A stretch of DNA of 64,000 nt, from contig JBAYJD010000004.1 in NCBI GenBank assembly GCA_041665305.1, positions 27,383 to 91,382 of the forward strand, in the 5' to 3' direction. Position 1 is the stretch's first letter. The number at the start of each line of letters is the position of its first letter. The position numbers were made by a program, and so were the translations under genes. This document shows positions 31,687 to 33,126 of the stretch, one piece after another. Source of the stretch: Elusimicrobiales bacterium (lineage in GTDB: Bacteria > Elusimicrobiota > Elusimicrobia > Elusimicrobiales > UBA9959). The notes beneath the pieces were generated by a model. It worked only from the letters and a program-made list of their open reading frames with translations. It did no database searches and was not told the origin of the DNA.

Positions 31687-33126
31687 CTATTTATTCAACG
31701 GCGTAAAACCGCTGAAGGATTTAACCATATATTCGAGCATTTGCTTTGTCATGCCGGGGTAGACGCCTATCCAGAAGGTGGAGGACATGATGGTATCGGT
31801 AACGGGCAAAGCGGAAGGGCGGCCGGAAGCGGAAACCACACGGAAGCCGCTGCCGGAGCGGCGCATTTCGTCGAAACAGGGGTGCTTTATAAGATTGCCG
31901 GCGAACAGCATGCGGGTCTGGATCTTGTTCTTCTCAAGGTGCGCGACAAGCTGATCGCGGGTAAAACCGGCGTTCTCTTTGACAGTCAGCATAAAACCGA
32001 ACCAGCTGGGATCTGAATCCTGCGCCGGTTCCGGAAGGATAAGCCTGTCTGAAAAAACATCGAGGGCTTTGCGCAGATATTGCCAGTTCTTTTTGCGGGC
32101 ATCTATGAATCCCGGGAGTTTTTCCAGCTGCGCCAGGCCTATGGCCGCCTGCATCTCGGTGGCTTTGAGGTTATAGCCGAAATGGGAATAGACATACTTA
32201 TGATCGTAACCTGACGGAAGTTCGCCGAACTGCTGCGTGAATCTTTTGCCGCAGGTATTATCCTTGCCGGAAGGACACCAGCAATCGCGGCCCCAGTCGC
32301 GGAAAGAATCCACCAGCCGCTTTAACTGGGGATTATTGGTGTATACAGCCCCACCCTCGCCCATAGTCATATGATGCGGCGGGTAGAAGCTGGAAGTGCC
32401 GATGTCGCCGAATGTCCCGGTGTATTGGGAACTACGAGGGTTGGATGACCTGCCGGATAAAGGAATGCCTTCTTCTAACCCTCCAACCTTCCAACCTTCC
32501 AACCTTCTGTATTTACTCCCCAATGCGTCGCAGTTGTCTTCTATCAACCAAAGGTTGTGTTTTTCGCAGAAAGATTTTACGGCTTTAAGGTCGAAGGGGT
32601 TGCCGAGGGTGTGGGCGGCCATTACGGCTTTTGTTTTTTTGGAAACGGCTTTTGCGAGCAGGGAACAATCCATGTTATATGAGGGCAGACTGACATCCAC
32701 GAACACGGGGACCGCGCCGTACTGGATGATGGGGGTTACGGTCGTGGGGAACCCGGCGGCGACGGTTATAACCTCGTCTCCGGGGTTTATCCGCCTGGCG
32801 CCCAGTTTGGGAGAGGTGAGGGCCATGAAGGCCAGCAAATTGGCCGAGGAGCCGGAATTAACCAGGGAAACATGCCTGACCCCGAGGAATTCGCCTAATT
32901 TTTTTTCGAAAGCGTCAACATAGCGGCCGGAGGTAAGCCAGAAATCCAGGGCGGAATCGACGAGGTTCGCCACCTCTTTTTCGTCAAAAACCCTGCCGCC
33001 GTAAGCGACATGGGATTTGCCGGGCTCAAAATCTTTCTTTTTATGGAAAAGGCGGTGGTATTGCGAAACTTTGCCGAGTATTTCTTTGCGCAGCTGTTTG
33101 TCCGTTACGACCGTCTTAAGATTCAT
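31687..33126 (-). CDS. rfbH: CDP-6-deoxy-D-xylo-4-hexulose 3-dehydrase (E1), with an in-frame repeat insertion
   Basis: [13 protein letters not shown] (His in place of the PLP Lys), [21 protein letters not shown] (Fe-S Cys cluster), [12 protein letters not shown]. It carries about 29 extra residues ([29 protein letters not shown]). Confidence 0.85.
   Translation of the reverse strand: [479 protein letters not shown]
32472..32511. repeat. 8-nt tandem array inside rfbH
   Basis: cttctaac cctccaac cttccaac cttccaac cttctgta. An inverted single unit, gagggttgga (32436-32445), is complementary at 9 of 10 positions to 32474-32483. Confidence 0.9.

Follow-up and report, generated by a model that had tools for sequence, protein, structure and literature searches.

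The gene rfbH, in a 64,000-nucleotide (nt) stretch of DNA from an Elusimicrobiales bacterium (hereafter the window; contig C4:27383-91382 of the source genome, labelled G000, with 2.9 Mb, 57% GC and 103 contigs), carries an in-frame, repeat-rich insert. We consider it likely that this insert is a decayed, translated and gene-less copy of a dispersed hairpin (foldback) element, here called family A, and a passenger in this genome. The arms of this element are short tandem arrays of 8-nt units (GGTTGGAR on one arm, YTCCAACC on the other) around a small GGAAGG-NNN-CCTTCC apex. One copy would have become fixed in the tip of a beta-hairpin of RfbH, which may be among the few places where added residues spare the enzyme; it has stayed open in frame and is translated as a disordered loop. 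No role of the insert in the RfbH enzyme or its mRNA is demonstrated in this genome.

The host gene and the recognizable parts of the insert are located in the window as follows:
31687..33126, minus strand: rfbH / ddhC, the intact host gene (E1, CDP-6-deoxy-L-threo-D-glycero-4-hexulose-3-dehydrase), an open reading frame (ORF) of 479 amino acids (aa).
32425..32508, minus strand: in-frame variable segment of 28 codons (84 nt) between two conserved Tyr codons, reading AGAAGGTTGGAAGGTTGGAAGGTTGGAGGGTTAGAAGAAGGCATTCCTTTATCCGGCAGGTCATCCAACCCTCGTAGTTCCCAA.
32472..32508, minus strand: 5' arm of the insert with about 4.5 tandem octamers, GGTTGGAA three times, then GGTTGGAG and GGTTAGAA (Tandem Repeats Finder and pattern matches).
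32459..32472, minus strand: apex mini-palindrome GAAGG-CATT-CCTT, the conserved tip of the element; a GGAAGG-N3-4-CCTTC apex is also present in C2:7751-7818 and C59 (~7730-7785).
32436..32445, minus strand: the one surviving unit of the 3' arm, TCCAACCCTC, read from the sequence.

Between the conserved Tyr codons, 74 of 100 orthologues have 7 codons, so that the 28 codons found here exceed the usual loop by 21 codons (63 nt net). When the loop is measured between CDALG and GTxG at 100 orthologous loci, its length is 12 aa in 74 cases and 8 aa in 16, compared with 33 aa here. Tandem Repeats Finder describes the octamer array at 32472-32507 with a period of 8, 4.5 copies and 89% matches; the array is heterogeneous, and the segment contains four GGTTGGAR octamers and just three perfect units. 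The 16-mer CCAACCTTCCAACCTT has 12 matches with up to three mismatches in the window, where 0.70 are expected, and none of 100 shuffles reached 12.

An earlier note, made from the sequence of the window alone, had described this region as a palindromic repeat insertion of about 29 codons that can fold as a hairpin. The insertion itself is borne out as a 28-codon segment with its octamer array, and so is the inverted unit, as gagggttgga (32436-32445) pairs with tctaaccctc (32474-32483) at 9 of 10 positions. The folding, in contrast, does not exceed that of shuffled sequence: the 88-nt rfbH stretch reaches -23 kcal/mol as RNA (z -0.40 versus dinucleotide shuffles) and -7.6 kcal/mol as DNA (z +0.13), and the apex stem alone remains in the DNA fold centroid. 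Since most of the 3' arm is lost and the fold is no better than that of the shuffles, the rfbH copy forms no meaningful hairpin now and represents a relic of one. A direct repeat 'TACA...TACA' flanking the insert was rejected as a duplication, because it consists of the two native Tyr codons, which are also found in empty sites.

The enzyme around the insert appears normal. The Yersinia E1 dehydrase (PDB 3BCX/3BB8) matches RfbH with an E value of 7e-162, with a break in the alignment that coincides exactly with query residues 207-235. Every column that is invariant in an alignment of 35 sequences is retained, including C199, D200, H251, H252, C282, C284 and C292, and SFYPPHH, C199 and C282-x-C284-x7-C292 are invariant throughout. 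RfbH has the features of the E1 dehydrases (RfbH/DdhC/AscC), namely a pyridoxamine phosphate-dependent fold-type I enzyme with a His replacing the Schiff-base Lys and conserved Cys residues, which include the putative [2Fe-2S] ligands. The insert is located 6 residues past the pyridoxal phosphate (PLP)-binding Asp segment, between Cys199 and the C-x-C-x7-C motif. An AlphaFold2 model based on the 35 sequences (mean predicted local distance difference test score, pLDDT, 84; predicted template modelling score 0.86) agrees with 3BCX at a template modelling score of 0.93, normalised to the target. Residues 215-231, between strands 205-207 and 233-235, have a pLDDT below 50. In line with the surface loop considered earlier, the model thus places the insert in a disordered stretch at the tip of a beta-hairpin on the surface, while the E1-dehydrase fold is otherwise normal.

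Family A is dispersed in the genome, as eight loci contain three or more GGTTGGAG-like units. Four of them are intact hairpins in spacers (C2:7751-7818, C26:5366-5450, C39:14775-~14850 and C59:~7730-7785), each consisting of a purine-rich octamer arm, a GGAAGG-N3-4-CCTTCC apex and a complementary arm, with DNA-fold z values versus dinucleotide shuffles of -5.4, -5.6, -3.3 and -2.7, respectively. The remaining four are partial copies inside a low-GC sugar cluster, in an 11.4-kb part of the window. Besides the one in rfbH, these are:
25119..25158, minus strand: degenerate family A copy with one arm and the start of the apex, GAAGAAAGCAATTTC, in the intergenic spacer that separates the genes for an epimerase-like protein and a DegT-family aminotransferase.
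35924..35957, plus strand: four perfect GGTTGGAG units in frame (SLQPSNPPTLQPSL) inside rfbG (ORF 35389..36537, minus strand, CDP-glucose 4,6-dehydratase).
36498..36533, plus strand: 4.5-unit array forming the first codons of rfbG (MSSNPPALQPSNPH; Tandem Repeats Finder).

The resemblance between the rfbH array and the intergenic copy at 25119-25158, which had been pointed out before, holds, as both end in GAAGAARGCA, the start of the hairpin apex. Several relatives likewise have insertions in rfbG, both internally at one position and at the 5' end, and every rfbG insert keeps the frame; extra residues at the equivalent of the internal site (35924..35957) are also present in G001, G002, G004, G018 and G028. 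The polysaccharide cluster (window 1-40000) has a GC content of 46-53%, below the 57% of the whole genome and the roughly 60% reached at the right end of the window, and this low-GC island is consistent with horizontal exchange of the cluster along with its repeat copies.

A search of 41 genomes (G000 included) recovered the pattern GGARGGTTRGA (GGARGGTTRGARGGTTRGA, up to one mismatch) in 6 of them, with 14 matches in G000, 14 in G002, 8 in G007 and 4 in G003. Its sister variant GGARGAYTRGA was found in 13 genomes, among them G001 (110 matches), G007 (97), G020 (43), G003 (23) and G021 (17); reversed-pattern controls gave 0-3 matches. Neither pattern was found in several genomes of the same genus or in any of 14 sister-family genomes. 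The copies in G001 are full hairpins or solo arms and are spread over many contigs, mostly in spacers. With unit and apex at eight loci, four intact hairpins and related families abundant in sister genomes, the data support the suggestion of the earlier note that the array belongs to a shared element resembling miniature inverted-repeat transposable elements (MITEs) or repetitive extragenic palindromic (REP) sequences.

Three orthologous spacers contain an octamer hairpin in G001 (loci L142, L146 and L140) and an ordinary GC-rich terminator-like hairpin in G000 (C53:~6840-6875, C42:~10385-10440 and C28:~35215-35310). This hints that octamer elements replace or target ordinary terminator-like hairpins.

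The same loop of RfbH is occupied in other genomes as well. In-frame inserts at exactly this position were found in G001 (+117 nt) and G003 (+102 nt), both of the same genus, and in G021 (+84 nt) of another genus, each built from a purine-rich tandem arm that a loop separates from its complementary arm. A Nitrospirota-labelled metagenome-assembled genome (MAG; locus L023, its RfbH annotated as Dissulfurispiraceae) contains an 84-nt near-perfect hairpin of GAAGKTGA octamers (z -8.7), with similar hairpins at the rfbG site and elsewhere. In these four genomes and G000 the loop reaches 33-51 aa, whereas 90 of 100 orthologues have loops of 12 or 8 aa. All five inserts have lengths divisible by three and lack stop codons; the sole unit of the Nitrospirota copy that would place TGA in frame reads TGT. 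The earlier note had named, as evidence against its reading, orthologues from unrelated lineages in which a loop of similar length is encoded by non-repetitive sequence; no such loop was seen at the five occupied loci read as DNA (5/5), including the one from the other phylum, while the remaining long loops among the homologues were seen as protein only.

A maximum-likelihood tree of 59 RfbH sequences, calculated with the loop masked, places the insert-bearing ones in three separate positions, with G021 as sister to an insert-free sequence. Comparison of query residues 150-300 with 5.8 billion proteins yielded 117 usable homologues, a sample biased to inserts since the query region contained one. 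Loops of 20-56 aa with several repeat flavours are present in 52 of these, and the presence of the insert changes at least 22 times on their tree (Fitch parsimony).

Among close relatives with flanks of 89-99% identity, the rfbH loop holds family A, family B or a one-unit footprint. The inserts of G001 and G003 are unalignable even though their flanks are 89-94% identical, and the one in G003 belongs to a second dispersed family, B, whose 16-nt unit GCAAAGCRNTTWRGAKG has 52 matches in G003, 20 in G001 and none in the control. In P0020, whose left flank is almost identical to that of G001, the site holds only AGGATGCAAAGCGATT followed by TC, which corresponds to one family-B unit plus 2 nt and restores the 12-aa loop; this is a deletion footprint. 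Gain, replacement and loss at the rfbH loop are therefore all seen between sequences whose flanks differ by a few percent. In the genomes checked, the loop holds units of a repeat family that the genome itself carries (family B in G003, family A in G001, the GGTTGGAR variant in G000), and the unit type does not depend on the native codons. The recurrence at this site probably reflects that few loops tolerate insertions, that a resident element attracts or recombines with others, or both, as the two do not exclude each other.

In the rfbH hairpins of G001 and G021 (loci L005 and L004), the antisense RNA folds with -66 kcal/mol versus -41 for the sense strand, and with -43 versus -26 kcal/mol, respectively. 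The mismatches in these hairpins are A-C on the mRNA strand and G-U on the opposite strand. The asymmetry could be due to selection against mRNA structure or to strand-biased mutation.

RfbH has a second insertion hotspot at residues ~429-440 (window 31800-31850, minus strand), between GFRVV and LPVTD. In relatives it holds SNPPILQ-type repeat peptides, for example VVAGASRQSSNPPILLASLPVTD in G001. The hotspot of G000 has a short remnant, SASGRPSA, with 6 aa more than the Yersinia E1. Matches to PF02452 in long RfbH homologues were considered as loop cargo and rejected, because they are N-terminal fusions and not loop inserts. In many metagenomic homologues of 537-602 aa (P0006, P0019, P0021, P0034, P0038, P0051, P0052, P0054 and P0107, several of them from Dissulfurispiraceae), an N-terminal domain of about 110 aa matching PF02452, which we take to be a PemK/MazF-like toxin family, is fused in frame to the dehydrase, an odd partner for a toxin-like domain.

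These results bear on four other explanations of the insert. According to the first, which we regard as improbable, it is kept for a functional hairpin that serves as a processing site, stabiliser or translational pause in the rfbH mRNA, or as a recombination signal in the DNA. Intact members of the family indeed fold strongly, and copies in G001 spacers sit at the positions of terminator-like hairpins of G000, so that intergenic copies may act as or replace 3'-end hairpins. The rfbH copy, however, folds at the level of its shuffles; in G001 and G021, two of the four Elusimicrobiota genomes with an occupied loop, the fold of the mRNA strand is much weaker than that of the antisense strand, and a close relative has its 12-aa loop restored. 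The at least 22 changes of presence and absence on the gene tree, together with the fast turnover of insert sequence and length, argue in the same direction, and the regulatory mRNA structure inside a coding region that the earlier note had offered as one reading is left unsupported.

A slipped-strand phase-variation switch, in which a unit gained or lost in the 8-nt arrays of rfbH and rfbG would shift the frame and so control dideoxyhexose (surface antigen) synthesis, appears very improbable. The unit length is no multiple of three, the arrays are located in surface-polysaccharide genes, one of them right after the rfbG start codon, and four lie inside 11.4 kb. Against such a switch, the heterogeneous rfbH array offers only three perfect units, and two assemblies (one from a JGI sample, 3300037810, and one from an ENA sample, ERZ27249449) are of the same length over 17.4 kb including all four arrays and differ by one single-nucleotide polymorphism. 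Moreover, all five rfbH inserts and all rfbG inserts at orthologous sites are in frame, and elsewhere the repeat forms intergenic hairpins. For annotators this means that the rfbH array should not be taken for a switch or a riboregulator.

Selection for the extra residues themselves, for example because they touch the E3 reductase or influence the [2Fe-2S] site, would fit the position of the loop, which lies close to the PLP-binding Asp segment and has conserved Cys residues on either side. We nevertheless hold it to be a very slight possibility, since it is the repeat family that dictates the sequence of the loop (RRLEDWK..SNPPTLQ, RMQSDLEAKQLG.., RRWEVEKV..SQLHNF, RMPLNSSTFNSS..), its length ranges over 20-56 aa with a pLDDT below 50, and the insert is absent from 90 of 100 orthologues, from the Yersinia E1 (3BCX) and from 65 of 117 close homologues.

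Local birth of the array by slippage from native loop codons (G-x-W-K, GGNGARTGGAAR), with convergence accounting for the resemblance elsewhere, is extremely improbable and in effect ruled out: although a Trp six residues past the first Tyr is common to native loops (xxxGxW) and many inserts (RRLEGW, RRLEDW), empty-site DNA of 74 genes is no closer to the unit than other windows of those genes (median percentile 0.51), the unit type at the site matches the genome-wide families in G003, G001 and G000, and an inverted arm with an apex goes beyond what slippage makes. By the same percentile, seeding through microhomology was rejected, as the loop windows of the 74 empty orthologues have no particular resemblance to the unit. 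That different families occupy the same loop in close relatives, and that the empty site is unlike the unit, agrees with the view of the earlier note that the copies are not independent microsatellite births.

Several points weigh against the interpretation of the insert as a copy of a dispersed hairpin element. At 16 family-A loci of G001 compared with the corresponding G000 sites, no target-site duplication and no clean boundary between empty and filled sites could be defined, the flank matches of 72-91% nucleotide identity (about 80% in spacers) being too diverged to fix ends or duplications, so that the comparison gives no proof of transposition in the strict sense. Four of the eight copies are located in one 11.4-kb low-GC cluster and could have arrived with it without ever being mobile here. 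Inserts could also spread by homologous recombination between rfbH alleles, with no need for an activity encoded by the element. Finally, G000 has no family-A copy with a cargo gene, and its one cassette with a PF05635 gene (see below) has GGCTGAAR arms.

Three larger gaps of G000 in the comparison with G001 turned out to be ordinary extra genes and not cassettes. No transposase partner was found for family A, and PF05635 is the sole cargo seen. A link to the REP-associated tyrosine transposases (RAYT) and the REP doublets forming hairpins (REPIN) was rejected, as the single Y1_Tnp gene (PF01797) of G000 at C7:55996-56655 has no flanking octamer arrays. It is flanked by a different 12-nt inverted repeat, AAAGGCTCATGC. 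The copies viewed have no fixed GTAG/CGTC head of the kind found at one end of the 20-40-bp REP palindromes, and their arrays start directly with octamer units (AGAAGG.., GGAGGA..).

A candidate for a cargo-bearing form was found in cassettes with PF05635 genes. The one PF05635 gene of G000 (23S_rRNA_IVP, E value 2e-35; C27:26019-26390) is bracketed by inverted GGCTGAAR arrays. We inspected nine PF05635 loci in G000, G001, G003, G007 and G020, and eight of them have inverted tandem arrays of 7-8 nt on both sides, seven identified by tandem-repeat scan and the G020 cassette by reading of the sequence; at the ninth (L124 in G007), the array is on the left side only. In G001 a PF05635 cassette is located between rfbG and rfbH. 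The G020 cassette lies between rfbF and rfbG, and its right arm is the 5' end of rfbG, the position of the 36498-36533 array in the window. The arms of this cassette contain GGAAGGATTAGAGG.. and ..CCAATCCTCTGATTCC, which are family-A-like, with a predicted duplex energy of -66.9 kcal/mol; the other PF05635 cassettes have arms of their own unit types. The shared architecture and the one shared family suggest that the gene-less hairpins may derive from, or have been mobilised with, PF05635 cassettes (23S-rRNA-IVS/Avd-like, where IVS stands for intervening sequence).

A study of Coxiella treats the IVS as a selfish element; it has an S23p ORF, terminal inverted repeats, a terminal stem of 28 bp and, next to the ORF, tandem heptamers in varying number (PMC4990558). 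The Avd-like proteins of diversity-generating retroelements belong to PF05635 as well (PMC10053308). We tentatively propose, at somewhat less than an even chance, that hairpins with tandem 7-8-nt arms are the gene-less form of widespread, undescribed selfish elements which carry a gene for a PF05635 four-helix-bundle protein in their full form, spread across phyla, home to or recombine with existing copies and survive in genes only at permissive loops. If this holds, elements would have been gained, swapped and almost precisely lost dozens of times independently at the tip of the RfbH beta-hairpin, a hotspot shared across phyla, and the origin of the classical ORF-bearing 23S rRNA IVSs would be explained.

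In G000 the cassette at C27:25965-26395 (locus L117) is located inside an operon, between a gene similar to those of [2Fe-2S] subunits, the C-terminus of which enters the left arm, and the following gene of that operon.

The nearest published analogues seem to be the Rickettsia palindromic elements (RPEs), by a working likeness and not by membership, and the ORF-bearing 23S rRNA IVSs, by a likeness of architecture. RPEs were reportedly described by Ogata and colleagues in 2000. Like them, the present elements are dispersed palindromic repeats with many copies per genome (8 loci in G000, 110 pattern matches in G001 and 97 in G007); some copies are inserted in frame in conserved protein genes and translated in surface loops with the fold left intact, as with the 63 additional nt of rfbH and the stop-free inserts of its relatives in multiples of three, and others are intergenic. 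Differences are found in the arms, which here consist of tandem 7-8-nt units of lineage-specific sequence, and in the shorter length of the elements (60-135 nt). The hosts are free-living Elusimicrobiota and Nitrospirota instead of Rickettsiales, and one site is repeatedly re-occupied by different families. RPEs are discussed in PMC3733652.

In common with the 23S rRNA IVSs of Leptospira and Coxiella (S23p/PF05635), the PF05635 genes here are bracketed by inverted repeats able to form a long stem, and the G020 cassette has the tandem 7-8-nt arms of the gene-less hairpin family. ORF-bearing 23S rRNA IVSs are said to have been treated by Ralph and McClelland in 1993. Variable-number tandem heptamers beside the ORF, together with a sporadic distribution suggesting horizontal spread, add to the likeness with the Coxiella IVS (PMC4990558). 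The rfbH copy differs in that it has no ORF, is located in a translated protein gene and not in rRNA helix 9, 25 or 45, and implies no excision by RNase III. Lacking an ORF, it may at most be a gene-less derivative of a PF05635 cassette.

REP sequences, bacterial interspersed mosaic elements and the REPIN-RAYT system resemble family A as short dispersed hairpins of lineage-specific abundance, mostly in spacers at gene ends and at the positions of terminator hairpins (PMC3733652). Unlike REPIN-RAYT, the family has tandem-repeat arms, no GTAG/CGTC head and common intragenic copies, and the Y1_Tnp gene of G000 is without octamer arrays. Foldback transposons and MITEs share the inverted arms of tandem sub-repeats and gene-less short copies beside longer cargo-bearing ones; the foldback elements of Drosophila have such arms. 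The differences from both are that no transposase was found, that there are no defined terminal inverted repeats beyond the arrays, and that no target-site duplication was detected between spacers of about 80% identity. No description of hairpins with tandem-octamer arms was found in full-text literature searches, by which only the heptamers of the Coxiella IVS (PMC4990558) and general REP/RPE papers were recovered.

For rfbH alone, the significance is modest, as a conserved enzyme tolerates a junk loop. Seen across phyla, small repeat hairpins have been gained, swapped or lost at least 22 times in a single surface loop of one enzyme. The common arm design at PF05635 genes provides a testable handle on two questions, namely how gene-less hairpins move and what the IVS protein does. 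Sites of this kind are natural maps of permissive positions for protein engineering, and they are also a warning that metagenomic protein families hold many repeat-encoded pseudo-loops.

Between rfbG and rfbH (window 33231-35320) we found an AAA_14/DUF4143 ATPase gene and a metallo-beta-lactamase-fold gene (Apyc1-like, by a weak match). In relatives the same interval contains the PF05635 cassette (G001) or an IS110 transposase (locus L137), so that it is a recurrent landing place. Further 7-nt tandem arrays are present in and between genes of the polysaccharide cluster, such as AGCCTTT at window 43424-43449. The clusters of relatives (loci L118, L119 and L120) contain GCTTTAG, TTTACGC, CCCTCAT and GGTCACA arrays, some of which are arms of PF05635 cassettes.

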